A stretch of 44,329 bases of DNA from Chiloscyllium plagiosum (lineage: Eukaryota): positions 7,817,676 to 7,862,004 of the forward strand of contig NC_057756.1 in assembly GCF_004010195.1 (NCBI RefSeq), given 5' to 3'. This document shows, in pieces, positions 1-36,552 of the stretch. Each line of letters opens with the position of its first letter. Positions within the stretch are counted from its first letter, which is position 1. The notes beneath the pieces are model-generated. The model was not told where the DNA came from, did no database searches, and saw only the letters and a list, made by a program, of their open reading frames with translations. Position numbers and translations under genes: made by a program.

Positions 1-46
1 AATGACCATGGAGCAGTGGAGGGCTCCATCACCATCATTGTGCAAT
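1..46 (+). CDS. Gene A exon: 3' end of a C2-set Ig domain (NDHGAVEGSITIIVQ)
   Basis: Matches the G-strand of gene B domains (NEHGSVEGSITITVD). Phase-1 donor T|GTGAGA at 47. Confidence 0.85.
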
Positions 47-3000
47 GTGAGACTACTGTTAGATTCATTCATTGTTACAGGAACCATTGGCACTGCCTTG
101 TTCCTTCTCCGGATTTCATAAAGCCCCCCTCATTCCACGCTCCAATGTTATTCACAGTCTGATTTTCCTTTATCCTTTCCTGCTATTCCCCTTCCCTATC
201 ACTTTACATTTACCCGGACTAATGCACCTAACTTGCACATTCGTGGACAATTTAGTTTGGCCAATTCACCTGAACCTGCACATCTTTGGATTGTGGGAGG
301 AAACCCGAGCACCTGGAGGAAAGACACGGGGAGAATGTGCAAACTCCACACAGACATTCGCCTGAGGCTGGAATCGAACTCGGGTCCCTAGTGCTGTGAT
401 GCAGCAATGCTAAGCACTGAGCCACCGTGCTGCCAATTTCTCTGACAACTGTTGCTGAGACAAAGATAGTTCCTCATTTCTAGGTCCTTACTCATCTGTC
501 TAGTTCACTCTGACTGCACTTAACACTCCCTTTTAACTCCAATTTTTCCCAGTCTTTATCTAAGCCACTCACTTATCTTGCTCTGCGTTCAGCTGAATCT
601 GAGCATCCTCGGCTATACCCACATCTCAAAAGCTGTTACCCTCCTCTCTCCACTTTCTTCAGAGTCTAACCCTCACATCCATCACATACAATCCTCCACG
701 TTAGTGACTATACCTGACATTTGCTCAACTTCGGGCTGTTTTCAGATGTTGAGACTGAAGTCACAGGCCATGCTGTGGCTTTTCTAAGCTAAATTTCAGT
801 CCTGGATGTAATTTGGATGTTTATCATTGAACCAAATATTGGAATGTGTCCACTTTCTCTATCACAATGCACCCAATCATGATGTCTCCATTGCCATTCA
901 GAGCCATTATATTGACCGTCACCACATTCATGTTCAGTCCAAATGTCTCCTTGCCTTTTGTCTGGGTCCATCAAACCCTCCAGTACCTCCTTTGTTCTGT
1001 TTGTGTGTGTGGTGTCATCCGCAGACCAGTGATTCCCCAGCCATGTCATTAGAAACCGAAGAATGTCCTGAGAGACTCTGAGATTTACATTGTTTGTGGC
1101 AGGAATGTGGATGTGTGTAAACACAGGCACAAATACTTCAGCACTCTTTCCTCTTTTAAGACACTTTCTAAATTAAACCTTTGGGTGGTGCTTTCAGTCA
1201 GTGACCAAAGGTCTCCTTTTGTGGCTCAGGATAACATTTTGCCTGAAGGTGGTGAAAATTGAGTGAGAGAATTCCAAAGCTTCAGGCTGTACCTGATCGG
1301 CATGGACGAGTTGGACCAAAAGGCCTGCTTCCATGCTGTACATCTCGATGATTCTATGCAGGCAATTGAAGGTGGAGCCATAAATATCAGAAAACACTCA
1401 AGATGCCGGAACAGAGATCTCAGAACGTTGTGGGCCATGGGGATTACCTGCTGATTCTCCTCTGCTCTTGTTCCAGATCCCCCACGGGAGACCACAGTGT
1501 CCATCAGTGGAGCCTCAGCTGGGATCAGAGAGGGACACAACGTCACATTAATCTGTTCCAGTCAAAGTGTCCCACCGATATTGCATTACACGTGGTTCAG
1601 GATGGAAGGTAACACCAGCATCCAGTTAAACACAAGCAGCCAGATTCTCTCCTTCACTCCAGTCACACGTGGGAATGATGCAGGTTTCTACTGCACAGTC
1701 ACAAGTCCATTGGGTAACAGCAGCTCCAATATGACCCACCTGAATGTGGAATGTAAGCATTTTACTCTGTCTGTCTCTTCTTTAAACTCCGTGATCGTCT
1801 GTCTGGGGAAGCTTACACACTGTAGTTTAGTATAACCTCCTCGCTGCTGTAACCTGTCCCTCACTGAGGTAATAGTGATACTAGGATAGGTGACCAGCTT
1901 GGCTGCTAAGGAACATCATAAATGAGGAGAGACTGGGGCATGGAGGATTAGGGAGGAAATTTCAGAAATTTGACTCCTGGGCAGGTGAAGATATGGTCAC
2001 GAATGGAGGGGCGATTGGGAAGGTTCAAGGTGCCAGAGTTGGAGGACGGTAGAGATCTTGGAGGGTTGTAGGGACTGGATGAGCTCACAGATTTAGGAAG
2101 AGGTGTAGGGTTGGAGGAAGTTACAGAGAAAAGAAGTGGGCAGGGAAAGATTTTAAAGGAAGGATGGGAATTATCATTTGGTGTTCCCAGACTGAGCGTC
2201 AATGTTGCTCAGTTAATGACAGAGCATAATTATTTAATCAAATTCAGTGCAACTTGGGACATGGCAGTAGAGTTTTTGATTAGCTGAAGTTTATGGAACA
2301 TGACAGATGAGAGCATTGAGAAACTTAAGTTTGGAGTGAAGCGAGGCCTTGAGAAAGACTTTAGTGTACAGGGTGTAACTTGACGAATTGTTGTCATTCC
2401 CTCCTCAGATGGTCCGGAGATTTCCTGGGAGTCGGAATGTGCTCAGAGGGCAGAGGGGATCACCTGCGCCTGTGTGGCCAACTCCAATCCTCCTGGAGAC
2501 CTGACCTGGCACCTGCCCCATGCCAACCTCAGCGGAAACCAAACACACGGAGGTTTTGTGTCGCAGCAGCTCAGAGTGGGGCATCTGGTGATGGGTTCGC
2601 TGATCCTGAAGGGAGACCAGGATGAAGAGAAAGTGATGGCATCCTGCTCGATTCGAAACCCACATGGAAAAGCCACACACAACATGTATCTTTGGGTCAG
2701 AGGTGAGAGGTTTGACCCACAATCGATCTCTGCCTGGTTAGTTATACTCGAGACTCGAGAATCCCCTTCCTCTCCCCTCACCACCTCCTTTGTATTGTGC
2801 TTTTCCGCTGGCCTCTGACCAACATGTCCCCGTGTGCCAGTGACAACACTGGATAAAGTTTGAGTCAGGGCGTTTTGGGGAGGAAGTCAGGAAATGCTTT
2901 CTTCACAAAGTGAGGTGGAAATCTGGAACTCTCATCAACATATCCCACCCTCACCCACACCCCCCAAAAAAAAAGCCTTAATTGAAAATACAGGCAGACA

Positions 3001-6000
3001 ATGCAGCAGGGGGTGGTGTGGGGGCAGGGAGTAGGGGAGACTGGTTGAGGATGATGTCCAGCCTTTGGGTGGGTGTCTCATCACAGACTGCAGGTGGGTG
3101 GTGGGGAGGTGGTTAGTGGGGGGTGTTAATGTGGCAGGACAATTGGAGCTAGACGTCAGGCTAGCAGCAAGGTAGCATTGGGGCCTTTATCGGGACTAGG
3201 CTGGAGGAATTCAGACCATTGGCAGTTTGGGTACTGGGTCCCATCCCAATGGTTCAGGCCAGCGGTGAGTTAAGGTGAATCATTTTGAGTTGGGAGTTGT
3301 GTCTGGATTGGGTCGAGTGGGAGTCAGTCTGTTTATTGGGGGAGGAGGAGAAGAATGGCATTGGGTTGTTGGCGAGTGAGAAGGTGCTTGTTCAGAGGAG
3401 GAATGATTGTCAGATGTCTGGGAAATGTAAGGGTACAGTGAGGTGAACTCAGGGATTATGTGGTCTGTTTGGGCTTGTGGGATCAGTTTATCTGGATGTT
3501 AGACTAGGCTTTCAATTGTCTGAACATAAAAAAAGTGGTGACCTCTGAAGCCTCTGACTTGAATGGGCTTTGTCAAGGCAATCCAGATGCAGGGCAGCTA
3601 CCTACCAGAATCTCCAATTTCCTGGACAATTCCCACGGAGGCAGCTGCTTGTGGGATTCTGCAGGGTGCTGACACACAACGCCAGCCTACGGTGCTCTGA
3701 CAACTCACTGTACATAAGAACATCCAGACCAATGTAAATACAAATGATACATAGATTACATCCAGAATCATAGTCATAGAGACAGACATGTTGGACCAAA
3801 CCGGCCATGCCGACCAGATATCCCAACCCAATCTAGTCTTGGACAAATATATTGCTCACATTATGACAGAATATGTTTACCTATGTGTGATGATTGCTTG
3901 ATTGGAGGTAACATAACTTCTGATTTATGCATAACAAGATCCCACAAATAGCAACACGATAATGAACTGATGATTGATTATTTTACTGAGTTTGCTTTGA
4001 TACAAAGACAGAGATCATGAAGTGGGTCATTGATAGCCCATTACTGAAGGAAACCCAATGTTTTACTCCAGTCTGTGCGTATGTGATTACAGTTTCAAAC
4101 TCCAATGTGGTTACCTCTTAACTGCTCTCCTCTCTCAGCTGGTGTGGTTCAAGAAAAAGATACCCCACAACCCTTCAAGCGGCAATGGAGGTGTATTAAG
4201 TGGCAACAGTGCTTGGAGTATATTCTGAAAAATGGAGTGCATTGCTTCCAATGATCCATCAGAGCATCATTCAAGTGTGATAATTAATGGCTGTTTTTAC
4301 AGATAGAGACTCCAGTAAATGGACAGTAGGACTGGTCGTGATTGGAATCATGTTGACTGTTTTTCTGGCTGGAATCTTAATCATGCTGAGTGTCAAAAAG
4401 TAAGTGTAAATGCTTCATTCAATTTTACTCTCAACATTTGCTTCCATTTTCATTCCTTCAGTTGATAACTGTTCCCTTGAGGTGAAGTACCAGACACTAC
4501 TTCTCTAATTGGTCCTCTTTCCCCAAAATGTAGAGCACTTCATTGTTGTGTGTGCAGGTGAATAGCTCTGAGTTGTTGTGATCTGGAACGTGCTGCCCGA
4601 TAGGGAGATAAAAGCACGTTCAACAGAAATGTCCAAATATGTAACTGACTCTCTGACATACATTAACCACATTGTGATATTGTGTTATTGCAGGAGAAAG
4701 ACAGCAACTGAGGAGACAGCTTCAAAGACCAGTGACATTGCATTGACTGACCGTCGAGTCTCTGTGAAACACCAGGTACAGAAGCTGTTTACACTCACTC
4801 CAAAGCTTTAAGCTCAGTGTTTCGACAATGCAACATGTTGCAACTAACAAATCCAAGTTAAAAATCACACAACACCGGGTTATAGTCCAACAGGTTTAAT
4901 TGGAAGCACACTAGCTTTCGGAGCAACGCTCCTTCATCAGGTGGCAGTGGAGGGCTCAATCCTAACACACAGAATTTATTGCAAAAATTTACAGTGGGAG
5001 GTAACTGCAATTATACATTGAAAAATTTTCAATATATAATTTCAGTTACATCACACTGTAAATTTTTGCTATAAATTCTGTGTGTTAGGATTGAGCCCTC
5101 CACTACCACCTGATGAAAGAGCGTCGCTCCGAAAGCTAGTGTGCTTCCAATTAAACCTGTTGAACTATAACCTAGTGTTGTGTGATTTTTAACTTTGTAC
5201 ACCCCAGTCCAACACCAGCATCTCTAAAACAAATCCAAGGATCTTCTCTGCACCAGCGTCACCTTTTTGAAACTGCCCAGGAGTGATGGGACTTTGCACG
5301 GAAGAGAGATAAGGTTAAATCCCTGCAAAACGGAGTTAGAAACAAAGAGATGGGTGTGAAGGTTGTGTGCAGTGAACATGGTTGAATTGGCAACATGCCA
5401 ATGATTACCCATGGATTTGGAGATAGTGAGAACTGCCGATGCTGGAGAATCAGAGTGAACAGAGAGTGCAGCTGGAAAAAGCACAGCAGGTCAAGCAGTA
5501 TCAGAGGAGGATGGGAGTTGATGTTTCAAGTTAGATGCTTTCATTAGGAGTAGCTCAGCGGGCAGCACTCTCACCTTCCTTTTCTCTGAGTCAGAAGGTC
5601 TTGGGTTTAATAACCAACTACACAAATTTAAACATAATCTGACAGCACTGTCACTCTGGGGTGTTAGTACCAATGGGGTAGCACACTATTGGAGGGTCAG
5701 TCCCAAGGGAGTGCCACTGACCCTGTTCTGTCATACAGTCATTCTACTCTCAATGTGCACTGCTTTCTCTTTACTCATGCTGCCAGATCTGCTGAGTTTG
5801 TCCAACAGTTTCTTTTGTTGTTATTTTCAAATTTCCAGCATTTGCAGTTCTTCTTTTGTGCAAAAATTGGCTCATGCCACCTGTTTATTTTATTGCTGCT
5901 TGTGAGACTTTTCTGTGCACAAACTGGTGCTGCACATCTTACATTACAACAGCAATACACTTCAAAACATGGCTGTGAGGTATTTTGGAACATGTGAGGG

Positions 6001-8935
6001 AAGAAGAGAGCTCAAATCCAAATTTGAGAGTCAAACTATGCTATCTCAGCGGTGAGAAAGGGTCAAGACNNNNNNNNNNNNNNNNNNNNNNNNNNNNNNN
6101 NNNNNNNNNNNNNNNNNNNNNNNNNNNNNNNNNNNNNNNNNNNNNNNNNNNNNNNNNNNNNNNNNNNNNNNNNNNNNNNNNNNNNNNNNNNNNNNNNATT
6201 ACATCCACTGAACTATGAATACCATATAAAAGGTTGTGCAATCATTTAACACAAATGTCCCAGAAAATTTCAGAACATCTTGTGTTTCCAATTCTGTGAT
6301 GGAACTACATACTGTCAGAGGTGCCATCTTTCAAATGATATATTAAACTGCTCTGTCTGTCCTCAGGGGGATATTAAAAGTTCCCACAGCCATTATTTGG
6401 AAGAGAAACAGTGAGCTGTTCTCAGTTCTTGGAACCTATCATTATCTCTCTCAAACAGAACAGCATTAAAAAAAAAATGTGAAGATGTGAGTTATTCCAA
6501 CACAGCTGTTGAGAAATTTAAAGTCATAGAGTCATAGAGATGTACAGCATGGAAACAGACCCTTCGGTCCAACCTGTCCATGCCGACCAGATATCCCAAC
6601 CCAATCTAGTCCCACCCGTCAGTGCCCAGCCTATATCCTTCCAAACCTTTCTATTCATATACCCATCTAAATGCCTCTTAAATGTTGCAATTGTACCAGC
6701 CTCCACCACTTCCTCTGGCAGCTCATTCCATACATGTATCACCCACTGTGTGAAAAAGTTGTCCCTTAGGTCTCTTTTATATCTTTCCCCTCTCACCCTA
6801 AACCTATGCCCTCTAGTTCTGGACTCCCCCACCCAGGGAAAATACATTGTCTGTTTATCCTATCCACATCCCTCATAATTTTGTAAACCTCTATAAGGTC
6901 ACCCCTCAGCCTCCGACGCTCCAGGCAAAACAGCCACAGCCTGATCAGCCTCTCCCTGTAGCTCAAATCCTCCAACCCTGGCAACATCCTTGTAAATCTT
7001 TTCTGAACCCTTTCAAGTTTCACAATAGCTTTCTGATAGGAAGGAGACTAGAATTGCACACAATATTCCAACAGTGGCCTAACCAATGTCCTGTACAGCC
7101 GCAACATGACCTCCCAACTCCTGTACTCAATACTCTGACCAATAAAGGAAAGTATACCAAACACCTTCTTCACTATCTTATCTACCTGTGACTCCACGTT
7201 CAAGGAGCTATAAACATGCACTTCAAGGTCTCTTTGTTCAGCAACACTCCCTAGGACCTCACCATTAAGTGTATAAGTCCTGCTAAGATTTGCTTTCCCA
7301 AAATGCAGCACCTCGCATTTATCTGAATTAAACTCCATCTGCCACTTCTCAGCCCATTGGCCCATCTGGTCCAGATCCTGTTGTAATCTGAGGTAACCCT
7401 CTTCGCTGTCCACTACACCTCCAATTTTGGTGTTATCTGCAAACTTACTAACTATACCTCTTATGCTCACATCCAAATCATTTATATAAATGATGAAAAG
7501 TAGTGGACCCAGCACGATCCTTGTGGCACACCACTAGTCACAGGCCTCCAGTCTGAAGAATAACCCTCCACCATCACCCTCTGTCTTCTATCTTTCAGCC
7601 CGTTCTGTATCCAAATGGCTCGTTCTCTCTGTATTCCATGAGATCTAACCTTGTTACCCATCTTCCACAGGGAACCTTGTTGAATGCCTTACTAAAGACC
7701 ATATAGATCACATCTACCGCTCTGCCCTCATTTGTTACTTTTTCAAAAAACTCAATCAAGTTTGTGAGACATGATTTCCCATTCACAAAGCCATGTTGAC
7801 TATCCCTAATCTGTCCTTGCCTTTCCAAATACATGTATCTCCTGTCCCTCAGGATTCCCTCCAACAACTTGCCCACCACTGAGGTCACTCTGGTCTATAG
7901 TTCCCTGGCTTGTCCTTACCACCCTTCTTAAACAGTACCACATTAACTAACCTCCAGTCTTCTGGCACCTCACGCTCAATGATATAAATATCTCAGCAAG
8001 GGGCCCACCAATCACTTCCCGAGCTTCCCACAGAGTTCCAGGGTACTCCTGATCGGTCCTGGGGATTTTTATCTACGTTCATGCATTTCAAGACATCCAG
8101 CACTTCATCGTCTGTAATATTGACATTTTTCAAGATGTCACCATGTATTTCCCTACATTTTTTTTATCTTCCATGTCCTCTTCCACAGTAAACACTGATG
8201 CAAAATGCTTGCTTATTATTTCCTCCATTTTATGTGGCTCCACACAAAGGCCGCCTTGCTGATCTTTGAGGGGCCTTATTCTCTCCCTAGTTACCCTTTT
8301 GTCCTTAATGTATTTGTAAAAACCCTTTGGATTCTCCTTGATTCTATTTGCCAAAGCTATCTCATGTCCCCTTTTTGCCCTCCTGATTTCCCTCTTCAGT
8401 ATACTCCTACTGCCTTTATACTCTTCTCAGGATTGCCTTGTGCAAATTGGCTGCTGTGTTCCCTAGATTACATCAATGACTACAGTTCAATAAATAAAAT
8501 GCTTCAGTGGCTGAGGAGAACTTGGGATGTTCAGTCTGTGTGAACAAGGAACTTTAGTCTTCAAAGTAAGAAAGAGCAGGATAAACTCCAAATAAACCCA
8601 CAGAGCTACAGTTGGCTCTCAAATGGTTGTGCAATAATTTAAAACTACCCCTGCTGATAAATGATGTGAGAACATCCTCTGTTTCCATTTCTCTACAGGG
8701 TTCACAGGACATGAAAGTTAAGGACCCTCTGGACACAATTAGAGAGGGAGATACACCATCTCCTCAGGATGTCTTTGACAGTCCAGTGGGAGGAGATGCT
8801 GGACATGAGAACCCCAACAGAACTGAAGATGTTCTCTACGCCAACATCAACTTTTCAAAGCTGCCCAAAGGTGACGGGACAGTGCACAGAGGCGAGGACA
8901 CGGAATATGCAAAGATCAGATTCCAACCAAACTGA
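1..8935 (+). CDS. Gene A: Siglec/MAG-like inhibitory Ig-superfamily receptor, 5'-partial, spliced (exons 1-46, 1477-1752, 2409-2702, 4303-4399, 4694-4775, 8699-8935)
   Basis: All introns are GT..AG with consistent phases (1,1,1,2,0). The joined translation gives C2-set Ig domains, a TM and a tail with ITIM VLYANI and ITSM-like TEYAKI. An extra exon could be hidden in the N gap. Confidence 0.9.
200..434 (-). mobile_element. HE1-type tRNA-derived V-SINE
   Basis: Minus strand starts GGCAGCACGGTGGCTCAGTG (A box)...GAGTTCGATTCC (B box), followed by the V-domain TGTGTGGAGTTTGCACATTCTCCCCGTG. Confidence 0.85.
1477..1752 (+). CDS. Gene A exon: C2-set Ig domain (YPPRETTVS...VTLICSS...YTWF...DAGFYCTV...LNVE)
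   Basis: Acceptor ctcttgttccag, donor T|GTAAGC; Ig Cys, Trp and DxGxYxC motifs. Confidence 0.92.
1885..2370 (-). mobile_element. Degenerate L2-like LINE fragment
   Basis: Purine-rich plus strand resembling the reverse 3' portion of L2; no intact ORF. Confidence 0.45.
2409..2702 (+). CDS. Gene A exon: membrane-proximal Ig domain of MAG-domain-5/Siglec type (YGPEISWESECAQRAEGITCACVANSNPP...ASCSIRNPHG)
   Basis: Acceptor ccctcctcag, donor G|GTGAGA. The ESxC...CxCVxxSNP pattern resembles MAG domain 5. Confidence 0.9.
3766..3838 (-). mobile_element. Short CR1 3'-tail fragment
   Basis: tcatagtcatagag...ccatgccgaccagatatcccaacccaatctagtc, the same tail as at 6523 and 43797. Confidence 0.7.
4303..4399 (+). 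CDS. Gene A transmembrane exon (DRDSSKWTVGLVVIGIMLTVFLAGILIMLSVKK)
   Basis: Acceptor ggctgtttttacag, donor AA|GTAAGT; phase 1 to 2; uncharged hydrophobic span. Confidence 0.9.
4694..4775 (+). CDS. Gene A cytoplasmic exon (RKTATEETASKTSDIALTDRRVSVKHQ)
   Basis: Acceptor gttattgcag, donor CAG|GTACAG; phase 2 to 0 fits both neighbours. Confidence 0.82.
4855..5225. mobile_element. Palindromic Penelope-like terminal-repeat insertion with hammerhead cores
   Basis: About 170-bp inverted arms (4855-5024 and 5026-5195) plus an unpaired tail; TSD aacaaatccaag at 4846-4857 and 5228-5239. Confidence 0.8.
5107..5141 (+). ncRNA. Minimal hammerhead ribozyme-like motif (second copy on - strand at about 4910-4943)
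   Basis: cac CTGATGA aagagc gtc gctcc GAAA gc TA gtg: conserved core, stem II, palindromic AGCT stem III and a 3-bp stem I. Confidence 0.6.
5548..6000 (+). mobile_element. Degenerate Deu-domain SINE (SacSINE1-like) with an inserted Penelope-terminus fragment
   Basis: tRNA-like head gtagctcagcgggcagcactctc...tctgagtcagaagg; tail acattacaacagcaatacacttcaaaa. Confidence 0.55.
6070..6197. other. Assembly gap (128 N)
   Basis: Run of N. Confidence 1.
6523..8428 (-). mobile_element. CR1 LINE, 5'-truncated and frameshifted (RT domain), nested in a Deu-SINE remnant
   Basis: ORF pieces LGPLLFIIYINDL..SKFADNTK, QHGF..KSCLTNLIEFF and RPLLEYCVQF; (ctctatga)n-type tail. The SINE halves lie at about 6310-6510 and 8430-8550. 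Confidence 0.92.
8699..8935 (+). CDS. Gene A terminal exon with ITIM (VLYANI) and ITSM-like (TEYAKI) motifs
   Basis: Acceptor tttccatttctctacag, phase 0; reads ...DVLYANINFSKL...EDTEYAKIRFQPN*. Confidence 0.9.
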   Translation, partial: GSQDMKVKDPLDTIREGDTPSPQDVFDSPVGGDAGHENPNRTEDVLYANINFSKLPKGDGTVHRGEDTEYAKIRFQPN

Positions 8936-9289
8936 CAGAGAAACAGGGAGAGGGGTTTGTGCAGCCTATATGGTTGGAAAATAACGAAGATAAAATGACA
9001 TTGCCCAACTTTGTTGGTAGTTCTGAACATGCTTTCCAATTGCTGCATCTTTTTCATGCTGTGAGAGGTTGCACAAAGCTTATGAATAATGTTACATATG
9101 TTAGTAAAAGCAGTTGTGATGAAGCTTCATAATGTGCTGTCATTATTTGGGAACTTTGGTTCTAAAGTGGAGAAATGAGGCAAATTTATTCGGTCAGAAA
9201 TAATCGAGAACAGAAGTGCTGTTAATTGCAGCCTCCAAGGCAGTAGCACTGACAGAAAATGACCTGATGTAATTCGGAGATAATGAGAT

Positions 9290-10790: not shown

Positions 10791-10854
10791 AGAATAGTAA
10801 TTTACTATTACTTGTATTTCACCAAGAAAAACAGTGAAAAGTATTTAAGTTGAC

Positions 10855-11265
10855 ATAGTCGTGGAGTCATAGAGATGTACAGCACAGAAACAGACCCTTC
10901 AGTCCAACTTGTCCATGCTGACCAGATATCCAAATCTAATCTCGTCCTATTTGCCAGCACGTGGCCCATATCCCTCTAAACCCTTCATATTCATATTCAG
11001 CCTCTCCCTATAGCTCAAACCCTCCAACACTGGCAACATCCTTGTAAATCATTGCTGAACCCTTTCAAGTTTCACAACATCCTTCTGATATAAAGGAGAC
11101 CAGAATTGCACCAAATTTCCAATGTCCCGAACAGCCGCAATATGACCTCTCAACTACTATGCTCAATGCTCTGACCAACAAAGGAAAGCATACCAAATGC
11201 CTTCTTCACTATCCCATCCATCTGTGACTACTTTTAAGGAACTAGGAACCTGCAGTCCATGGTCT
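10855..11265 (-). mobile_element. CR1 3' fragment with internal deletion
   Basis: Same tail and sequence as the 6523 copy. Confidence 0.85.
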
Positions 11266-12379: not shown

Positions 12380-12461
12380 AACAGAGAGAGAGAGAGTTGG
12401 GGTTGGGGGTGGGGTGTTGTGGGGGTGGGGGAGCTGGTGTGTGTATGAGAGAGAGAGTGAG

Positions 12462-12514
<53 letters not shown>

Positions 12515-12612
12515 GGGAGAGAAGACAGGAACAGCCCAAGACAAAAACAGCCCAAGACATCGCGAATGAAATAGAGAGAGAGAGAGAGAGAGAGACAAAC
12601 AGAAAGAGAGAG
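12380..12612. repeat. Compound (GA)n/(GT)n microsatellite
   Basis: Directly visible. Confidence 0.95.
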
Positions 12613-22800: not shown

Positions 22801-22804
22801 GCTG

Positions 22805-23066
22805 CTCAAGTGGATGTGGAAAATCCCATGGCGATTTTTGGAAAAGGAGCAGGTGTTCATCTTCCCAATGTCCTGCAACCAACTTCTATTTCCCAATCAG
22901 CATCCATAAAAGCAAACGTTATGTCTCACAATCGCATGCTTTTTTTATGGAATCTTGCTGTGTCAATCCTACATTGCAAAGATGGCAGCACTTCAAAACT
23001 ACTTAATTCACTGAAGCGCTTTTGAAAAGTTCTGCAGTGGTCCAAGGTGTTACACAAATGTAAGTC
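22805..23066 (+). mobile_element. Deu-domain SINE 3' part
   Basis: aagtggatgtggaaaatcccatggc...cctacattgcaaa..cacttcaaaactactt...tgaagcgctttt. Confidence 0.65.
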
Positions 23067-23813
23067 TGCCTTGGTTAGAATTGGGCAAGGGAATATGATT
23101 TAATACTGGTGGATAAGAGTTTGATCAAAGAGATTGGGTTTTCTGAGCATCTGAAGCAGGCGGTTTAAGGAGTGAAGGGATGTTTTTGGAGGGGAACGGT
23201 GTGGGTGGGAGACTTCAAAGAGAGAGGGGACCAGTTACTGAAGAGAGTGAACCATCACAACGGTTGGCTAACATGAGAGCCAGGAGGGAATGTTGGGTGA
23301 TGAACGTTTAGTGGGAACTGGACAGAGGGAAAAGGAGGCAGTTGTCATTGACAGAGTGAGCTTGGAGAGAGCATGAGAGGTGATAGAACAGAAAGTGGGC
23401 AGAAATGACAGTTCTGGGCTAGGGCGGAGGTGAGGATTCAAGGAACGTTGACCCAGTGGATGAGTGCAAGGAAGGGAACTGGCGCAGAGTTGAATACGTC
23501 TGTTCAGTCTTGGCAGAAGTTTGATCAAGATCGAAAGACATTGACAATCACAACGGACAGAAGGACATTCCTTGCTGTTGGAGATAATGTAGAAAAAGGA
23601 TGTTTAAAATTAAATCCAGACCAACACATCTTGGACACCTCATCACTCAACTCTGACACATCACCTCCGAGAAACGCCAGCACATGATATTGAGAAATTT
23701 CAAAGTAGTTCTTGGGAATGATTCCTGTGGATTTTAGAAAATAAGTTGAAGTTTAAAAATATTCCCTCAATCTGTGTTGTCCCCATGCTGAACATTTCTC
23801 AATCTTATTTAGT

Positions 23814-23921
23814 TTAGATATTCGCATACACAGCCTCGTCATCATAATTGCAGTTTGCGTAGAGGTCATCTTTTTGGTGCACATGGACATTATGATTTGA
23901 TTTCACTTCTTCAACTTTCCT
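23814..23921 (-). CDS. Gene B terminal exon (RKVEEVKSNHNVHVHQKDDLYANCNYDDEAVYANI*)
   Basis: Strong acceptor tttccatttttattgcag, phase 0; two YAN motifs, then TAA. Confidence 0.85.
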   Translation of the reverse strand, partial: RKVEEVKSNHNVHVHQKDDLYANCNYDDEAVYANI

Positions 23922-26900
23922 CTGCAATAAAAATGGAAATGAGCAGAACAATAATCAGAGTGATCAATGTTAGCATTATTCACCTGAATAGAAATTTTAC
24001 CCCCAATAGATCCATTAATAGTAAGGTCCTAGGACATGTTGCTGAACAAAGAGACTTTGGAGTGCAGGTTCATAGCTCCCTGAAAGTAGAGTCGCAGGTA
24101 GATAGGATAGTGAAGAAGGCGTTTGGTATGCTCTCCTTTATTGGTCAGAGTGCTGAGTTTCGTAGTTGGGAGGTCATGCTGCAGCTGTCCAGGACCATTG
24201 ATTAGGCCACTGTTGGAATATTGCATACAATTTTGGTCTCCTTCCTATCAGAAGGATGGTGTGAAATTTGAAAGGGTTCAGAAAATTGTACAAGGATGTT
24301 GCCAAAGTTGGAGGATTTGAGCAGCAGGGAAAGGCTGAACAGGCTGGTGCTATTTTCCCTGGTGCTGAGGGGTGATCTTACAGATGTTTATAAAATCATG
24401 GATAGGACAAATAGACTAGGTCTTTTTTGCTGGGGTGGGACAGCCCATAACTAGAGGTCATAGGTTTAGGGTGAGAGGGGAAAGATGTAAAAGGGACCTA
24501 AGGTGCAACTTTTTCACGCTGAGCGTGGTGCGTGTATGGAATGATCTACCAGAGGAAGTGGTGGAGGCTGCTACAATTACAATATTTAAAAGGCATCTGG
24601 ATGGGTACATGAATAGAAAGAGTTTAGAGGCATATGGGCCAAGTGCTGGAAAATGGGATTAATTTAGGATTCCTGGTCAGCATGGATGAGTTGGACTGAA
24701 GGGTCTGTTTCTGTGCTGTACATCTCTATAACTCTATGACTCAAATTATCTGAACAGAGTCGTGTTTGATTATTGATACTGAACTGTGTGGGATTTGATT
24801 ATTGGCACTGAATAGTGTGAGGTTTGACTATCGATACTGAATGGTGGGAGTTGTGCAGTTTTTGAGTTCAGGGGTTTGGTTGTATAAGTGATTGCAGAGA
24901 CACGACTGGACCAGACATGTCAGTATTGGAACCGGTGGAGGAGGTGTGCCTGTGCATTTGGTGGTATGTTGCTCACCTTGTGACTTCTCAAAGCCCAGTC
25001 AAGCTCACAGCTTTCATAAGTAGGACATTGACATGCACTGACACCATATTTAGCTTCATTTTCTTGTTTCATTTTCTTTCTCTCCTGGATCATAACCTGC
25101 TGTACAGTGTGCTAGGCAAAACATCTTTTCAGTTTGACTCCTGATCTTGTGAGTGGAGCAAACCACTCATGGGTTTTCAGCAGAGTAGCAGTGTGAGAAG
25201 ACGAGCTTCTCATATTGTTCATACTGTTCTTTGGGCCAGCTTCCCCACCCAGAGTATTCTGAATTAGACTGGGCACCGCACAAGGCAGTGGTCCTTTGAT
25301 GAATGTTCACAATGAACAGATGATCGGCGAGCTGTTATCATGCTGGGTAGTTTTGCCTTGTCTCCTTTTAGCAACAATGAACTTCTGTACTACAAAACAA
25401 TCCTTTTATTATCTTAATCATTTTGTTCAGCCTTTAATGTTCTAGTCTCGAGGAACCTCAAGCTTTGCTTAGCTTGTGCAGCCTACCCTCAGAATTTGAT
25501 TAAAAGATGTTCTATACTGCAGAGTTGAGCCTTCTACACAGATCTTAACACTAAGCAAAATTATTTCAAAGGTATCAATCATTGGAGTCTGCTTTATAAA
25601 GTCATCAACATCAATACAGGAAAATGTTGGTTGAGGAATTGAATTCCGACAAGTACTTTACTTACCCTGGACTTGTCAGACTGCTCCCTTGCGGTGTCTG
25701 TTTGGTTTCTTTCTGTGCTTTTCACTCTGTGTATTTAATTAGAAATAGTCACTATGGGTCAGATCGGGGAGTAGGGAAGAGTATGAAGGTACGTTTTCTG
25801 AAATGCAGGACCTTCATCTTTCATTGCTAGTAAATCATTAACTCTTTGTGTCCTGTTTCCTAACCATATTGCAGTGTTAGGTGGGCAATTATTGACATTG
25901 AGATTTACTTCACTGCTCCCTCCAGAGGACAAAGAGGGAACGTCTGCAGGACCAGATGTTACTCCACGCTCTTTGAAACAGTGAGAAACTGAACAAAATG
26001 TGCAAGACAATGAAAACGAGAATGAGATGGAGAGCATCAGTAGATAAAGGAGAGGGAAATGAGAAGGTGAAAATGGAAAGGGATGCATCCACTGATGACA
26101 GAGAGGCTTGCATTTATATAAATGCAAAACGCTGCTGATGCTGGAGATCTGAAATGAAAACAGCAAATACTGGAAAATCTCAGCAGGTCTGGGAGAGTCT
26201 GTGGATAGAGAAACAGAGTTAATTTTGGGAGTTCAATATGGCTCTTCATCTCGTTCAGGTCAGTAGTTGGGACAATCTATGAGTGACTGTCAAAGAAGAG
26301 TTGTATTGGACTGTAAAGGTTAACTCTGTTTCCCTCTCCACAGCTGCAGCCAGACTTGCTGAGTTTCTCCAGTATTCCCGGTCTACAGTTAGATGGCTCC
26401 TTTCACAACCTGAGGAGATCAAAACACATTTTAAAGCCAGATTACTAAACATTGACTGGAAATCAAAGCACTTCAGTATCTCATCAGTATTTTTGAAATG
26501 TGAAAGGTGCTGAGGAGCTGCTGTGAGTTCAAAGGCAGCAAATGAACCTTTTGCACTTACTTTCTCACACACTTGAAGATGAAGAACGCACTCAGTCCAA
26601 CAATCAAAATGATTCCAGCTCCAAGCAATCCTGCTTTCCAAGCACTAAAATTTCGACCTGGAGAAACAGCCAATGAATTTAGATTTTGCATAGTTTTAGT
26701 GGTACAGACTTGATCGGCTGAAGAGCCTTTTTTGTACTCAGAGACTCATGGAATCATACAGTAGAGGACCTTTGGTCGATCATGTTTATACCACTACCCG
26801 CATTTGCTCCACTTTACTGCACGAGGCCTATTCCCTTGAATGCATGAGTTCATCCAAGTATGTTTTGCCTTTCAACTTCAAAACGATAGCCCCTTGATAT

Positions 26901-29900: not shown

Positions 29901-32900
29901 TTTGATAAAGTTCCAAATAAGAGGCTAGGGTATAAAAATCAAAGTATGTTGGACTGGTGGTAATATGGATTGAGAACTGGTTAGCAGACAGGAAATAGAG
30001 ATTCGGAATAAATCAGTCATTTTCAGAAGAAAGGCAGTGACATACAGGATATCATAGGGAGCAGTGCCTAGGTCCTAGCTATTCACTACATATCAGCAAT
30101 GATTTGGATGAGGGAATTAAATGCAATATTTCCACAACACAATCCATCAACAGTAACTAGTTGGGGTTATGAGGTGGTGAGGAGGATGCAAAGAGCTTTC
30201 AAGATGATTTAGACAAATTGAGTGTGTGAACGAATGTATGACAGATGCAGTAGAATGTGAATACGGGCGAAGTTGTCAACTCCAATCAGAAAAACAGAAT
30301 GGCAGAGTATTACTTAAACAGATGGAAAGGTTAATGTAAAAAGAGACATGGGTGTCCTTGTGCACTGGGCATTGAAAGCAAGCATGCAGGTGCAGCAAGC
30401 AATGGAGAAAGGAAGTGGTCCGGTGGCATACAGTGCAAGAAGATTTGAAAACAGAGCAAAGAAGTCTTACTGCAGCTGCACAGGGCTTTTGTGAGGCCAG
30501 ACCTGGAATATTGTGCACAGTTTTGGTCCCCCTACCTCAGAAAAGATATACCTATAGAGAAGGTTCACAAGACTGGATTTCTGGGATGGCAGGTTTGTTG
30601 TTTGAGTTTTTCGAAGAATGAGAGGGAATCTCGATGACATATATACAAATCTGGCAGGTCTAGATAGACTGGATGCAGGGATGATATTTCCTTTTATCAG
30701 GAATCCAGAACAAGGGGTCACGGATTCAAATTGTGGCTATTTTGGACTGAAACATGAAGAGACTTCTTTGATCAGAGGTGAACCTACAGCAATTGTCTGC
30801 CACAGAAAGCTATGAATCCAAGCCACTGAATATGTTTCAGAAAAAAGTAGATTTCCAAAGGCTAAAGGTGTCATCGTGTATGATGGGAATGGGAGTATGA
30901 GATAGAGGGTCAACCAAAAATATGTTGAACAGCAAAGCAGATTTGATGGGCTGAATTGCTTATTACTCATCTTATTCTCCATGTTTCCACATTATCCTTT
31001 CTTGGAACTATATCACAATTCCTTCAGTGTTGCTGAGTCAAAATCTTGGATCTTGTTTCCAAACATTACAGTATGATAACCCCAACCCTCTGAACCACAG
31101 TCATGTCTAGAAGGTAGCTAAGGGCTAGGTTCTCAAGGAGCAATTAGGGATGGTCAAGAAATGTCAGTGCTACCAGGAATGCACACATCACGTAGACCAA
31201 TAAAAGCTGATAAAGTCTGAGTACACTCACTTTTTACAGAGATGGTTATGGAGTCCTCCACTGTTCCATGTTCATTCTCTGCCACACACTGATAGTCTCC
31301 AGTCTCCCTGTACGTAATGTGAGGAATCTCCAACCACAGCTCATTGCTGGAACGTGTTCTGTTCACTGTGACATTAAGATGTCTCCATATCAGGTTGGAA
31401 GCAGGGGAGCTCTTGACAGAGCAGATTATCACTGCAGAATGCCCTTCAATTACACTGATCGATGAATCTTTAATAACATGAATAGAAGTGATCACAAGAT
31501 TCCGTGGTGTGTCTACAAACAAAGAAAGAATTTGTTGTGAGCTACCAGCGCACAGCAAGACTCCCTGCTCATCTCTCTCTCTGTCTAATGTCATTATGCA
31601 TTAGCAGTAACATTTCTGCAATCTAAGTTTCTGTGTGACATTTCTGGTGGACACTACCTGTCTAAATCATCACGCTGCATTTCACTCTCACCCCAGTGGA
31701 CAAAAGATGAAGAAAGTAAGTAAGGTACACATCCTCAGAATGTCACAGTTGAAGGCGGGGGATGGTTTGAGAGGGGAGGGATTGTGTGTACATGTGTGTG
31801 TGTCCCAGTGACACTGAGGGAAAAGCAATATATTTCCAACTCAAGATGATGAGTGGTTTGGAGTGGAATTTGCAGGAGATTCTCATGTACATGTAGCCCC
31901 TGTTCTGTGTGGTCATAGGTTTTGAAGGTGCTGTCTATGAACCTTCCCAGATTTCTGCAGTGCCTCTTGTCAATAGTACACATCGCTGCTACTGAATATT
32001 CATGGTGGAGGGAGTGAATGCGCCATAGAGTCATATATTATGGAAACAGACTCTTCGCTACAATTCTTCTGTGCCAGCCAGACATCCCAAACTAAACGCG
32101 TCCCATTTGCCAGCTTGTGGCCCATATTCCTCGAAAGCCCTCCGATATATACACCCATCCACATGTCTTTTAAATGCTGTCATTGTACCTGCCTCCACCA
32201 TTTCCTCTGACAACTTGTTTTGTACATGCATCTTCTTTTCCATGAAAAAGTTACCCTTTAGGTCCTTCTCAAATATTTCGTCTCTCACCTTAAGACTATG
32301 CCATTTCAGTTTTGGACTCCCAAATCTTGGGGAAAAGACCTTGGCTATCTGTGCCCCTCATGATTTTATCAGCCTCCGTAAGGTCACTTCTCAGCCTCCA
32401 ATGCTCCAGGGAGAAAAAACCCAGTCCATTCAGCCTCTCCCTATCTTTCAAGCCCCCAATCCTGGCAACATCCCTATAAGTCTTCTCTGTACCTTCTCAA
32501 GTTTAACAACATCCTTCCAATAGAAGGGCCACCAGATTTGTATGCTGTATTCTAAACATGGGTTTGTGGATGTGGTGCCAGTCAGGCAGCTGCTTTGTCC
32601 TGGGCAGATTTTTGAGTGTTATTGAAGTTGCATCCATCCAGGCAAGTGAGGAGTATTCCATCACACTCCTGACTTGTGCCTTGTGAATGGTGGACAGAAT
32701 TTGGGAAAACAGGAGGTGAGTTACTCACACCAGGATTCTTAACCTATGACCTGCTCTTGGAGCCACTATATTTATACGGTTTGTTCAGTTATCTTTCCAA
32801 TCAATGGTAAGCCCCAAGGATGTTGATCGTAGGCGATTCAGCGATGTTGGCACCAGGTAATGTCAAGGGATACTGGTAGATTCTCCCTTTCTGCAGATGG

Positions 32901-35900
32901 TAATTGTATGGCATGAATAGCACTAGACAAATGTCAGACTAAACCTAGATTTTGTCCAAACCCTGTTACATTCACATATGGATTGCTTAAGTATCTGTGC
33001 AACAGACCTTATGATGGAGGGATGGCCATTGATGAACCAGCTGAAGATGGTTGGGCTGAGGACATTTCCTTGAGGAACTCCAGCAGAGATGTCCTGGAGC
33101 TAAGATAACTGACCTCCAACAACCATAACCATCTTCCTCTGTGCCAGGTATGAATCCAACCAATAGCAAGTTTTCTGCTGATTCCTATTAATTCCAGTTT
33201 TGCTCAGGATCCTTGAGCCATATTTAGTCAAGTGTGGGCCTGACATTAAAGGCAACCATCTCAATCTCTGAAATTCCGATGATTTGGTTATGTTTGAGCC
33301 AAGGCTGGATGAAGTGAGGAATACAGTTCCCCTAGTGCACATCAAGACTCCACACTCTTCTGTCTATTTAAGCTGCCATGCTGTATTTACACTGTCCCAT
33401 CAGTGAAAACACTCAACATTGTGGAAGAAAGGAAGTGCCTTTCACTGTCTAAGGTAGTTGCCAAACAATGTGGCAGCCAGTAAAATGTCTTTGATCAATG
33501 GAGTTTTGAGAGATAAATCTACAATTTTCCATAGAGAAGGCTGCTCAATTATTACAGGTCCTTCTAATCTATAACATTTGCATTCCTTCAACACAGATTC
33601 AGAGTGAACACTGACACTGTACTGTACAAATGAGAGGGGGCAGATAATTCACAAGTGGGTGTGTGTCTCTGTGTCTTCATGTATATTTCTGACAGGAATT
33701 TAGAAAGTGTGTACACTCACGATCCACTGTGATGGTTATGGAGCCCTCCACTGATCCATGTTCATTCTCTGCCACGCACTGATAGTCTCCAGTCTCCCTG
33801 TACGTAATGTGAGGAATCTCCAACCACAGCTCATTGCTGGAACTTGTTCTGTTCACTGTGACATTAAGATGTCTCCACGTCAGGTTAGAAGCTGGCAAGC
33901 TCTTGACAGAGCAGATTATCACTGCAGAATTCCCCTCAATTATATTGATTAATGAATCTTTCATCACATTAAGGGATGCAACTGAGAGATTCCGTGGTGG
34001 ATCTAAAACAATTAAAACAAATTCAATTACAATTACTGTGAAGCAGTGAAAAGCAGTGACAATGTGAAAGGAGTGATATCAATGCAGCTTCCTTTATCAG
34101 AAAACAGATCATCTAGACACAAGCTTCAATTCAGCACTGAGGGCGTGCCACTTTGTCAGATGTTCAGTCCTGAGGGAATACCATGCTGTCTGAGGTTCAG
34201 TAATAAGGGAGTGTCACACTTTCAAGATGGTCAGTGTTGAGGGAGTGCTGCACTGTCAGAGGGTCAGTACTGAGGGAGTGCCGCACTGTCAGAGGGTCAG
34301 TACTGAGGGAGTGCTGCTTTGTTGGAGTGTCAGTAATGAGGGAGTACTGCACTGTTGGAGGATTAGTACTAAGGGAGTACTGTCAAAGTGTCAGTAGTGA
34401 GATAGTACTGCAGCATTAGAGGATTAGCTCTGAGGGCTTGCTGTATTGCCAGAGAGTTAGTACTGTGCGAGCTTTGCTCTTTCAGAGGACACTTACATTG
34501 AACTGTCAGTACGAAGGTCTGCTCTGATGAAACAGTTGGATATCTCACTCTGCAGGTGAGAGTTTGTCCCTGGTGTCTGGGTGATGGGATCAGGCTCAGA
34601 ACAGAAGTATAGGTCAGAGTGACACCATTCTGAGTTACAGTGTTTGAGACTGATCCAGGTACGGCAGTGGGAGTGTCCCAGGCTAAGACAGGAGCTGTTC
34701 CATTGCACGTTGTGTTGAAGGTGCACCTTAGGTTCACACGCTTTTCCGCGATAATTTCCACAGGGATTATTATGGGTTTCTCGGTGAAATCTAAGATAGA
34801 GAGAATGCATCATTTTAAATAAATAAAATGGGAATCATCAGTTCAAAAAGAATCAAATTCCCATGAAAGAAAGCACTTTTACAAGCACTCATGATATGAG
34901 ATCAGAGGTTAAAATAATGAAGGAATTCCTTTTAAACAGGATTAGAGATAGAGGCAGTCAGTAACCAGATAGAACTGATACATTTAATCATTCAATATAT
35001 TTAATCATTGATATCGAAGTCTGTATTAGAGGTTCCTTCTGGACAGAATTCTTAGAATCCTGACAGTGTGGAAGCAAGGCATCCTGTCCATCGAGACCAC
35101 ACCAAATCTCCAAAAAGCATCCCACCCAGATCCACATACCAATCCCCGTAACCCTGCATTTCCCATGGCTAATCCAGCCTGCACACCTCTGGACACTATG
35201 GGCAATTTCGCATGGCCAATCCACCTAACCTACATATCTTAGGACTGTGGGAGGAAACTGGAGCACCCATAGGAAACATACACAGTTAGAGAGAATGTGC
35301 AAACTCCACAGACAGTCAACCGAGGCTAGTATTGAACCCGAGTCCCTGGTGTTGTGAGGAAGCAGTGCTAACTGCTGAGCCAAGGTGCTGTCCTGAATTG
35401 AAAGCTACCACCAGTTAATTGATAATACATACAGTGTTTCAATAAGCTGTGCTTTCTGTGGAATGCTGTGGAGGAGAGGCTCGAGTGTTCCATTGATCCA
35501 AGAGTGACACTGTCAGAGTTCTGAACTCCTGTCAGTGTCACCCATGATGGTAAGGTCAGAGAGAAGAAACTAGACAAAGCACAATCCAAAAACCTGTTGT
35601 CAATGGCGAGCCAGGTGGAAGATACCTTTTTTTTATTAGATTACTTACAGCATGGAAACAGGCCCTTTGACCCAACAAGTCCACACCGACAAGCAACCCA
35701 CCCAGACCCATTCCCCTACATTTACCCCTTCACTAACATGATGGGCAATTTAGCATGGCCAATTCACCTAACCTGCACATTTTTGGACTGTGGGAGGAAA
35801 CTGGAGCACCCGGAGGAAACCCACGCAGACACAGGGATAATGTGCAAACTCCACAGACAGTCGCCCAAGGTTGCAATCAAACCCAGGTCCCTGGTCCTGT

Positions 35901-36552
35901 GAGGCAGCAGTGCTAACCACTGTGCCACTGTGCCACCCATACCTGTGTGATATCAACGGCTATGAGACAAATATCAGCTGCAGCGGTAGGGAGATTCATC
36001 ATTAACATTCACCTGCTGATTTCTGATGAATTGCAAAGGCATTCCTACATTGTTCAACACATACCTAACCCAGATTTTCATCAGTGTCCAATCATGCTCA
36101 TTCCCAAGTGATTGCCATGACAGTAATAAACTGTGTCTGTATAATTTCCTACTGAGAGCTGGGTGTACGTTATTGAGTAAATGTAACTCAGCACTTACCA
36201 GAAATGTGAAGGTTGGTTGCAGGAAAGTAGCTGTAACTATTCACATTGTCAAATTCTATTCTCAAGTGATAAGATCCTGCATCTTCCCGTATGATATTGT
36301 TTATAATCAGGGAACAGTCTCCATCTTTCAGGTGTCCAGACAGCCAGGTCCGAGTGCGGAACCGTTGCAACATTTTCTCATGATGCTCGGAATGAAAAGC
36401 TACGGAATCTTTCCCTTGGTACCAGATTCCAATTCGTGTTTGGCTTGCTAGATGTGAAGGATAACTGTAATGACATGGAATCCGAGCACAGGAACCTTCC
36501 TGCGCTGTCACCTGAGGTGGAATGTTGATTTTCCAGTTTTGGGCCAGTCCAG
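23814..36552 (-). CDS. Gene B: Siglec-like receptor V-C2-C2-C2-TM-cytoplasmic tail, spliced, leader exon not found
   Basis: Seven GT..AG-bounded exons in consistent phase (1,1,1,1,2,0); Siglec V-set signature, TM and terminal tyrosine motifs. Confidence 0.9.
24015..24742 (+). mobile_element. CR1 3' fragment
   Basis: QRDFGVQVHSSLK..RPLLEYCIQFWSP..TRGH..WNDLP; tail ctctataactctatgactc. Confidence 0.9.
24977..25111 (-). CDS. Possible additional or alternative gene B cytoplasmic exon (HTVQQVMIQERKKMKQENEAKYGVSACQCPTYESCELDWALRSHK)
   Basis: 135 nt, open in phase 0 to 0. Strong donor AAG|GTGAGC but weak acceptor (ttttgcctag; alternative in-frame AGs nearby). Confidence 0.35.
25666..25726 (-). CDS. 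Gene B cytoplasmic exon (VKSTERNQTDTAREQSDKSR)
   Basis: Acceptor tacacag, donor AGG|GTAAGT; phase 2 to 0, as in gene A. Confidence 0.75.
26561..26657 (-). CDS. Gene B transmembrane exon (SRNFSAWKAGLLGAGIILIVGLSAFFIFKCVRK)
   Basis: Acceptor tggctgtttctccag, donor AA|GTAAGT. It is 97 nt and phase 1 to 2, exactly like the gene A TM exon. Confidence 0.9.
28060..29745 (+). mobile_element. CR1 remnant with Penelope insertion
   Basis: YRTLVRPLLQYCLQFCSP..LERVHQR..; CR1 tail. Confidence 0.88.
28621..28990. mobile_element. Palindromic Penelope-terminus insertion
   Basis: Inverted arms; TSD caagatttatata at 28608-28620 and 28991-29003; core CTGAAGAAGGGCTTATGCCCGAAACGTC at 28864. Confidence 0.85.
29820..30985 (+). 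mobile_element. Old CR1 remnant
   Basis: Decayed RT motifs and RPGILCTVLVP-type C-terminal region. Confidence 0.7.
31231..31512 (-). CDS. Gene B exon: C2-set domain 4, a duplicate of domain 3
   Basis: Same 282-nt length as D3 with a near-identical core; acceptor tttgtttgtag, donor A|GTGAGT. Confidence 0.93.
32025..32560 (-). mobile_element. CR1 3' fragment
   Basis: DLKGNFF..EEMVEAGTMTAFKRHVD. Confidence 0.85.
33721..34002 (-). CDS. Gene B exon: C2-set domain 3 (YPPRNLSV...IICSVKSLPASNLTW...ETGDYQCVAENEHG)
   Basis: Ig motifs; acceptor tgttttag, donor C|GTGAGT. Confidence 0.93.
34130..34450. repeat. Second array of the 33-bp minisatellite, in the gene B D2-D3 intron
   Basis: cactgtcagagggtcagtactgagggagtg units. 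Confidence 0.85.
34497..34790 (-). CDS. Gene B exon: Siglec domain 2 (DFTEKP...LRCTFNTTCNGTAPVLAW...TSVLSLIPSPRHQGQTLTCRV)
   Basis: Extra Cys for the D1-D2 disulfide; TSVL..P...HQGxxLTCxV motif. Acceptor tctatcttag, donor T|GTAAGT. Confidence 0.95.
35060..35392 (-). mobile_element. HE1-type V-SINE
   Basis: As for the other copies. Confidence 0.8.
35635..35937 (-). mobile_element. HE1-type V-SINE
   Basis: As for the other copies; tail gtaagtaatctaa on - strand. Confidence 0.85.
36199..36552 (-). CDS. Gene B exon: Siglec V-set sialic-acid-binding domain
   Basis: QNWKI...QEGSCARIPC...GIWY...GDCSLII...EDAGSYHLRIEF...SYSY, with Siglec Cys placement and F-strand Arg. Acceptor ctctccccag, donor G|GTAAGT. 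Confidence 0.95.

Follow-up and report, generated by a model that had tools for sequence, protein, structure and literature searches.

A candidate paired Siglec-like receptor system in sharks and rays and its tandem Tyr-x-Asn tails

Introduction

Do sharks pair an inhibitory Siglec with a partner of opposite sign? The question is raised by a stretch of 44,329 nucleotides of Chiloscyllium plagiosum (NCBI RefSeq assembly GCF_004010195.1, contig NC_057756.1, here C47; C47:7817676-7862004), the whole of which is called the window. Within it two paralogous genes of Siglec type converge, gene A on the forward strand and gene B on the reverse strand, with their stop codons 14.9 kb apart, and both correspond to RefSeq Siglec-like models. 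The initial annotation saw in them an inhibitory receptor and a ligand-binding twin that carries its own tail resembling an ITAM (the activation motif of immunoreceptors, which is tyrosine-based) in place of a charged transmembrane (TM) residue.

The answer differs for the family and for this pair. In elasmobranchs, the sequence comparisons give good support to a paired-Siglec-like system: exon-limited gene conversion and, in several species, near-identical V-set domains across tail classes, both hallmarks of such a system, are found in the family, but A and B do not form the simple inhibitory-ITAM pair that had been proposed. Our best explanation is a system of three receptor classes, namely A-type inhibitory tails, B-type tails with tandem Tyr-x-Asn, and short tails behind a TM arginine (the Arg class). 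In this explanation, whose chances we hold to be about even and in which all function is read from motifs, B is a Grb2-type and probably co-stimulatory member. The long gene A would inhibit through an immunoreceptor tyrosine-based inhibitory motif (ITIM) and an immunoreceptor tyrosine-based switch motif (ITSM), presumably by recruiting SHP-1/2. In the short gene B, the tandem Tyr-x-Asn tail would be phosphorylated by a Src kinase and would then recruit adaptors of the Grb2 family, giving a co-stimulatory signal instead of one through ITAM and Syk. Pathogen mimicry may have been the driver.

The tails of genes A and B

What kind of signal could each tail give? The last exon of gene A (8699..8935, +) has the ITIM/ITSM-type tail already recognized in the initial annotation, with the ITIM-type VLYANI (Tyr 8837), the ITSM TEYAKI (Tyr 8906) and the stop codon. 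TEYAKI fits the ITSM (TxYxx[VI]), while VLYANI, with Ile at +3, fits only the extended ITIM and not [ILVS]xYxx[LV]. Both motifs are conserved across A-type proteins.

The last coding exon of gene B (23814..23921, -) reads DDLYANC-x7-YANI-stop, with tyrosines at 23861 and 23828. The YANC-x7-YANI motif of the initial annotation is present, but it takes one or two additional small exons to bring it into frame. A direct splice from the TM exon (26561..26657, -; 97 nt, phase 1-2, hydrophobic core uncharged) is out of frame because the phase is 2 at the end of that exon and 0 at the CAG acceptor of the last exon; it was rejected, as it shifts the frame to KGKLKK-stop and loses the tyrosine motif. 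The frame is supplied by a cytoplasmic exon of 61 nt (25666..25726, -; phase 2-0) and by an optional one of 108 nt (24977..25084, -; phase 0-0), both kept with their splice sites in a paralog, gene D. The optional exon is included in the RefSeq models of C. punctatum and Hemiscyllium and not in that of C. plagiosum, and its tyrosine motif is PTYESC in gene B and YENC in six relatives.

Reads bear on these exons as well. Among the runs listed as containing the sequence, none is recorded as RNA. Four runs were aligned to window positions 22900-34900, and the bins that hold the two small exons show read depth; a single-cell run, with about 2 in 100 reads used, has no depth on the unique exons of gene B, too small a sample to count against them. 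For the optional exon, 108 nt is a more probable length than 120 nt, being favoured by gene D, by the models of the two other species and by the depth of its bin (6.6, with 6.49 expected for 108 nt and 7.21 for 120 nt). A relative's run, probably of RNA, gave a contig of 1492 nt that, with 37 differences and 8 gaps, spans 22906-23921, ends exactly at the predicted acceptor and covers the 3' untranslated region (22906..23813, -).

The tails of the homologs sort into classes, and the class of gene B ends in (D/N)-(L/I/V)-Y-(A/E)-N-C-x7-Y-(A/G)-N-(V/I)-stop, a pattern kept in sharks and rays. It was examined in 25 B-type proteins, 15 of them chosen by eye and the remainder drawn from a profile search and cluster look-ups. 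The first tyrosine has asparagine at +2 in 23 of them and the second in all 25, which agrees with the pY-x-N motif bound by the Grb2 SH2 domain. The first tyrosine cannot be an ITIM because Asp or Asn occupies its -2 position in 23 of 25; its +3 position is never Leu or Ile, and is Cys in 21. A canonical ITAM (YxxL/I-x6-8-YxxL/I) occurs in none of the 25 tails, and a relaxed rule is fitted by 1 of 16. The two tyrosines lie 11 residues apart in 24 of 25 (ITAM range 10-12), with acidic residues upstream of both, and the protein always ends three residues past the distal one, mostly on Val, Ile, Leu or Met and twice on Thr or Lys. Since the extra exon adds another YENC, seen in 6 of 25 proteins, the single YxN unit is a multiplied element. 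A second set, with 30 distinct motifs found in 18 species, was selected by a pattern that itself requires Asn, so that the Asn counts are those of the 25-protein set; its spacing is 11 in 25 motifs, 10 in 4 and 9 in 1.

Wider searches agree with this picture. The Pfam ITAM profile (PF02189) has no match in three B-type proteins (P0023, P0042 and P0060), and it matched the positive control P0069 with E 0.0023, below the curated cut-off. Among 170 proteins, one, the P0069 that Pfam matched, has a canonical ITAM in its final 90 residues, and that one is not B-type. A profile of 12 B-type tails, run against 1.84 billion representatives, returned 11 proteins, all of them elasmobranch Siglec-like. 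Given the +3 residues and the Pfam result, the description "ITAM-like" has to be given up: the B tail is best taken as a Grb2-type motif of the ITT-like kind, predicted to dock Grb2, and no true ITAM. The pYxN sequence is the Grb2 SH2 consensus and is reported to be enough for DNAM-1 activation, the +2 Asn being needed and the +3 residue not (PMC4647266). Tandem YxN would then be a third tail type, not known from mammalian Siglecs.

Where might such a tail come from? When the last exons of A and B are aligned with the distal YANI of B on the ITIM of A, their DNA agrees at 21-22 of 45 positions, above codon shuffles (p 0.004-0.03), with other registers scoring higher for B and D; homology of the two exons is suggestive. 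As a lead, the B tail may be an ITIM exon truncated after its first motif, with -2 relaxed and another YxN added. The B-type tail also occurs in another Siglec-like subfamily (C47:8200853 onward; P0165, P0081, P0073), in whose V domain the essential Arg is missing (YYFYVD); therefore, the tail module moves between ectodomain families.

Sequence exchange and matched V domains

Another question is whether A and B see the same ligands. The V domain of B (36199..36552, -; 354 nt, Siglec-type V-set, essential Arg in YHLRIE) is 64.1% identical to the first V domain of A (V1) and 56.4% to the second (V2) (nonsynonymous divergence, dN, 0.28; synonymous divergence, dS, 0.32). It is 91% identical to its C. 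punctatum ortholog and falls in a clade of five carpet-shark B orthologs with support 100/96; gene B represents an old lineage of carpet-shark orthologs. With V domains as distant as 64% and 56%, the claim of ligand-binding twins fails on the very ground that its authors had named, and A and B, as far as their sequences tell, are not such twins. Because the V domain of B has drifted from those of A, B probably sees other ligands.

The first C2 exon of B (34497..34790, -) is a different matter. It shares 95.2% of its DNA with that of A, with 98-100% in the core and 43-71% in the unrelated flanks, and a dS of 0.055; for comparison, dS between A and B is 0.32 in V and 0.61 in TM. Residues common to A, B and a further paralog, gene E, of C. 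plagiosum are absent from their orthologs. This pattern marks a conversion tract, and gene conversion between A and B is, on this evidence, restricted to the first C2 exon.

If B is not the twin of A, which genes are? Gene D (C47:7954687-7982017), on the strand of A and ~100 kb away, has a B-type tail (YANW-x7-YGNI), and its second V domain is 94.3% identical in amino acids to V2 of A, the exon agreeing at 94-100% and its near flanks at 80-85% (dS 0.046). The C. punctatum orthologs of D, B and A bear consecutive locus tags, which fits linkage of these genes. In the sevengill shark Heptranchias, an A-type protein of 1506 aa and a B-type protein of 412 aa from separate RefSeq loci (XP_067831451/XP_067831309) are identical at 119/122 V residues (97.5%) and 96/99 C2 residues. 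V domains of Arg-class and A-type proteins of S. torazame are 88-100% identical, a cross-class pair of Pristis reaches 96.7%, and 7 of 10 Arg-class V domains have an inhibitory V domain of the same species at 90% identity or more.

A tree of 83 V domains (122 columns, unclassified and duplicate rows excluded, many forks open) requires 19 changes among the three tail classes, the least possible being 2, and shows supported same-species cross-class sisters in five species. What defines paired receptors, matched V domains on different tails in the same species, thus appears at the level of the family, partly on automatic gene models. The matched partners of the inhibitory genes would be other B-type genes (D and the Heptranchias pair) and, above all, the Arg class.

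The Arg class and the cluster

Does the cluster also hold an activating partner of the classical kind? At C47:5706350 lies an intact exon for a TM segment whose Arg is close to the outer end, followed by a tail of 9 residues, and degenerate copies of this exon lie 55-75 kb right of the window. The same exon is found in nine database proteins of Carcharodon and two Scyliorhinus species, in the layout leader-V-(C2)-TM-Arg exon. The TM core of B itself is uncharged. The proposal that in sharks an intrinsic motif replaces the charged TM residue is not supported: the charged residue with a short tail that B lacks is present in this separate class, which is found within this cluster as well as in further sharks. 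To judge from this design, the family has a classical activating partner in addition to the B class, and by analogy it would couple to an adaptor of the FcR-gamma type.

In ~0.63 Mb of C47 around the search matches, A-type tails are intact at four places and B-type genes in three cases (B, D and E), beside several decayed pieces; assembly gaps are frequent in this region. There is also a second tail-to-tail pair (C47:8399910-8434807), in which a broken A-type last exon (+) faces the intact gene E (-); no A-type ectodomain exons were found in the gappy 50 kb left of the broken exon. Further, more distant Siglec-like or V-set groups are located elsewhere on C47 (6.62, 7.37 and 7.70 Mb), on C33 and on C2.

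An observation of its own concerns the sawfish Pristis pectinata, where P0069 (XP_051901316) and P0087 (XP_051901468) are alike at 324/335 ectodomain residues. P0069 has an uncharged TM segment and a canonical ITAM, YQEL-x7-YSEL, and P0087 has an A-type tail; P0069 would be either a twin with a receptor-borne ITAM or a chimeric model. A DAP12 origin of this tail, suggested by a likeness of the two, was dropped when searches of the C. plagiosum genome, of short proteins, of the PDB and of the Atlas gave no match.

Siglec character of the family

Are these receptors Siglecs at all? Their architecture is that of Siglecs, with V-set followed by C2-set domains and one TM segment. The V domain of gene B matches sialoadhesin with E 3e-15, and sialoadhesin, MAG and the CD33-related Siglecs rank above every other immunoglobulin (Ig) protein; the best single-sequence PDB match is MAG for the whole of B and sialoadhesin for its V domain. 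The essential Arg is in register (YHLRIE of B on YNFRFE of sialoadhesin), is also present in V1 and V2 of both A and D, and is invariant or nearly so in the family alignment. The N-terminal Trp of the B V domain is likewise in register with Siglecs, and alignment to sialoadhesin, MAG and Siglec-8 reveals the Siglec cysteine pattern, with two Cys near strand B, one in strand E and an extra one in the first C2 domain. The family profile scores 134 bits with CD33, 130 with MAG, 123-124 with Siglec-5/10/8 and 70 with CD22, while Siglec-15 stays below the cut-off. The family is, by these measures, Siglec-like and closer to CD33-related Siglecs and MAG, which score about equally, than to CD22 or Siglec-15. 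From the essential Arg, we infer that these receptors bind sialic acid.

As for its distribution, each of 72 homolog matches to the B V exon is from a shark, skate or ray, and so, bar one unnamed, are the 120 matches listed out of 199 in a further search; these searches require shared exact words and cannot show absence outside elasmobranchs. Look-alikes in the ESM Atlas were limited to generic Siglec/CD22-like clusters. In basking shark, catsharks and rays, five models (P0001, P0002, P0003, P0006 and P0010) have 4 to 7 tandem Siglec V domains, mostly with the essential Arg, and may be either real multivalent lectins or fused models.

Gene structures

The exons of gene A within the window, spliced to 343 aa, are identical letter for letter to the C-terminus of its RefSeq models (XP_043539166-8, Chiloscyllium plagiosum), and those of gene B, spliced to 491 aa, are likewise the C-terminus of XP_043539169 (P0023), with which the B V exon gave a 100% identical match in the homolog search. 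Chance is excluded as the origin of these exon structures because the agreement is exact.

In the window, gene A comprises (all +) the end of its ninth repeat-type C2 Ig exon (1..46), a membrane-proximal C2 Ig exon (1477..1752; 276 nt, phase 1-1), a last Ig exon (2409..2702; 294 nt, phase 1-1), an uncharged TM exon (4303..4399; 97 nt, phase 1-2) and a first cytoplasmic exon (4694..4775; 82 nt, phase 2-0), before the last exon already described. Its leader, V1, V2, the first C2 exon and the first eight of nine repeat-type C2 exons lie as far as 40 kb to the left of the window, which the ninth repeat exon reaches. The RefSeq models of gene A are without leader and V exons, and the orthologs in C. 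punctatum and Hemiscyllium have the layout leader-V1-C2-repeats. Two of the nine repeat exons contain in-frame stops (C47:7795989 and 7800536) and are skipped in the RefSeq models; all repeat exons being of phase 1-1, the frame survives this skipping.

Gene B is shorter, its layout being leader (~7 kb right of the window)-V-C2-two repeats-TM-tail. The repeat-type C2 exons are at 33721..34002 (-) and 31231..31512 (-), of 282 nt each. The structural likeness of the two genes stands as the initial annotation had it: both have a 97-nt TM exon of phase 1 to 2 (A 4303-4399, +; B 26657-26561, -), with acceptors alike at 13/15 bases, and both have the same Ig repeat type (NDHGAVEGSITI at 1, NEHGSVEGSITI at 33766).

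Some observations concern A-type tails alone. A decayed copy of the ITIM exon, its Tyr lost, lies in the last intron of gene A (window 5228-5308, +), and a similar one is found in a paralog at C47:6156067. In A-type tails of stingrays and devil rays (P0129-P0170), the first motif is PVYA(N/S)L, which is no ITIM, and the second is VIYSEL-like, which is one; two of these ray models terminate directly after PVYAN(I/V), resembling B-type tails.

Competing interpretations

How firmly can a co-stimulatory gene B and a paired system be upheld? Several findings weigh against them. None of the splice junctions of gene B is listed in the read test, whose junction table is full of repeats. The A models of C. 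punctatum and Hemiscyllium lack the V2 exon, which splicing of gene A may leave out, and the cross-species pairs depend on automatic gene models, some visibly fused. A B-type V domain has a same-species A-type counterpart at 90% identity or more in 2 of 18 cases, and at 80% or more in 5 of 18. Asn at +2 is found in the first motif of 32 of 42 A-type tails and hence does not single out the class supposed to activate. Profile alignment sets the distal YANI of B on the ITIM of A, in a weak match (probability 23%), and the distal tyrosine of B may be the homolog of the ITIM tyrosine. Perhaps B is, beside A, an inhibitory receptor of a milder kind: the C-terminal Tyr of B would be a shortened ITIM for SHP-1/2 or SHIP, the upstream YxN would draw Grb2 into a damping complex, and only the TM-Arg genes would activate. 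Grb2 recruitment can damp signals, and Grb2-dependent inhibition is reported for CD22 (PMC5302901). The distal motif matches the extended ITIM [SILV]xYxx[ILV] in 13 of 30 B-type motifs, and a classical activating class, well matched to inhibitory V domains, is already at hand in the cluster. However, 17 of the 30 do not fit, that of B itself having Ala at -2, an ITSM is missing, and the proximal motif carries Asp/Asn at -2 together with Cys at +3. Short B-type and long A-type ectodomains with matched V domains, as in Heptranchias, are moreover the usual pattern of opposed pairs. An inhibitory B is, in our opinion, rather unlikely.

Or could the tail still work as an ITAM of atypical form, bound like that of CEACAM3 by the tandem SH2 domains of Syk/ZAP-70, and make B a self-sufficient activator? 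This was the initial view, and the spacing of 11, the acidic residues before both tyrosines and the uncharged TM segment would suit it; ITAM-like CEACAMs of Xenopus also retain YxN (PMC5112662). Yet the first +3 residue is never the required Leu or Ile (0/25 canonical, 1/16 relaxed), Pfam finds no ITAM, and the spacing is 10 or 9 in 5 of 30 motifs. The spacing may even be inherited, as A-type tails have His (14 of 42) or Tyr (2 of 42), followed by x-Asn, 11 residues upstream of the ITIM Tyr. We judge an atypical ITAM quite unlikely. Decidedly unlikely, too, is a role for B chiefly in endocytosis or as a decoy, its last four residues clearing sialylated cargo with no net activation. Yxx-hydrophobic is a tyrosine-based sorting signal, and the invariable end three residues past the distal Tyr, mostly on Val, Ile, Leu or Met, is what this idea predicts; but it leaves the conserved upstream YxNC, the duplication by the extra exon and the +2 Asn unexplained, and 2 of the 25 proteins end in Thr or Lys.

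The three-class system with a Grb2-type B is the explanation that we retain. A broader version of it is possible but doubtful: a paired-Siglec system of the sharks' and rays' own, predating the shark-ray split, in which an exon-converted pool of sialic-acid-binding V domains would be shuffled before four modules. These would be ITIM plus ITSM, adaptor coupling through the TM-Arg, a true receptor-borne ITAM (sawfish), and tandem YxN, an ITIM exon edited into a Grb2-docking activating module that is present in no mammalian Siglec. If so, arms races over sialic-acid mimicry would be older than the mammalian CD33-related Siglecs, or reinvented apart from them.

Significance and comparison with known systems

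What is new in all this? The genes are already on record through automatic Siglec-like annotation; the tail classes and the conversion pattern are new. Bony fish are reported to have Siglec-1, CD22, MAG and Siglec-15 regularly, and CD33-related Siglecs are stated to be missing in fish (PMC7226832). In the whale-shark genome paper a single mention of Siglecs was found, as a family of jawed vertebrates (PMC8455134), and in the available text of a 2025 review of sialoglycan-binding proteins the words "shark" and "cartilaginous" do not occur (PMC13358205). Literature searches for shark, cartilaginous or elasmobranch Siglecs or paired receptors found no publication on this family, subscription journals being outside their coverage; shark genes may be mentioned in a 2018 review of Siglec evolution. 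Paired Siglecs have hitherto been described from primates; a multi-copy, exon-converting Siglec-like cluster of cartilaginous fish, with inhibitory, adaptor-coupled and Grb2-type tails, would mean that paired sialic-acid sensing arose, or arose convergently, in the oldest lineage still living that has adaptive immunity. With 15 residues and two tyrosines, the B tail is also a simple testable module.

The closest comparison is with Siglec-5/14 and 11/16, which share with the shark genes a Siglec-type V+C2 ectodomain, clustering, a member with ITIM and ITSM, and conversion of N-terminal exons (PMC4042635). The mammalian pairs, however, are nearly identical in their first two domains, whereas A and B share only the first C2 exon. 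Activating Siglecs are described as using charged TM residues with DAP12 (PMC13233462, PMC4042635), as does the mammalian partner in these pairs, whereas B has an uncharged TM segment and a tandem YxN tail; in the charged shark class, unlike Siglec-14/16, the Arg sits near the outer TM end. This third class, with its TM arginine and short tail, recalls the LILRA design that couples FcR-gamma in the LILRA/LILRB system (PMC10679719), but on a Siglec rather than a LILR ectodomain.

CEACAM1/CEACAM3 and the Xenopus CEACAMs resemble A and B in opposed gene orientation, exon-limited conversion, a partner with its own tyrosine motifs and a retained YxN; they differ in sharing 80-93% of the V-like domain, against 64% for B and A, and in having ITAM or YxxL/M/V/I/F where B has YxxC (PMC5112662). 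The tail of DNAM-1/CD226, which is ITT-like, has the same succession of acidic residue, hydrophobic residue and Tyr-x-Asn near the C-terminus (PMC4647266), but B-type receptors carry two or three such motifs in tandem, with predicted Grb2 binding, on a Siglec ectodomain. Finally, among the single Siglecs (MAG or Siglec-4, CD22, sialoadhesin and Siglec-15), the best single-sequence PDB matches are those named above, MAG for B and sialoadhesin for its V domain, and it is as a multi-copy, fast-evolving family that the shark receptors stand apart from them.

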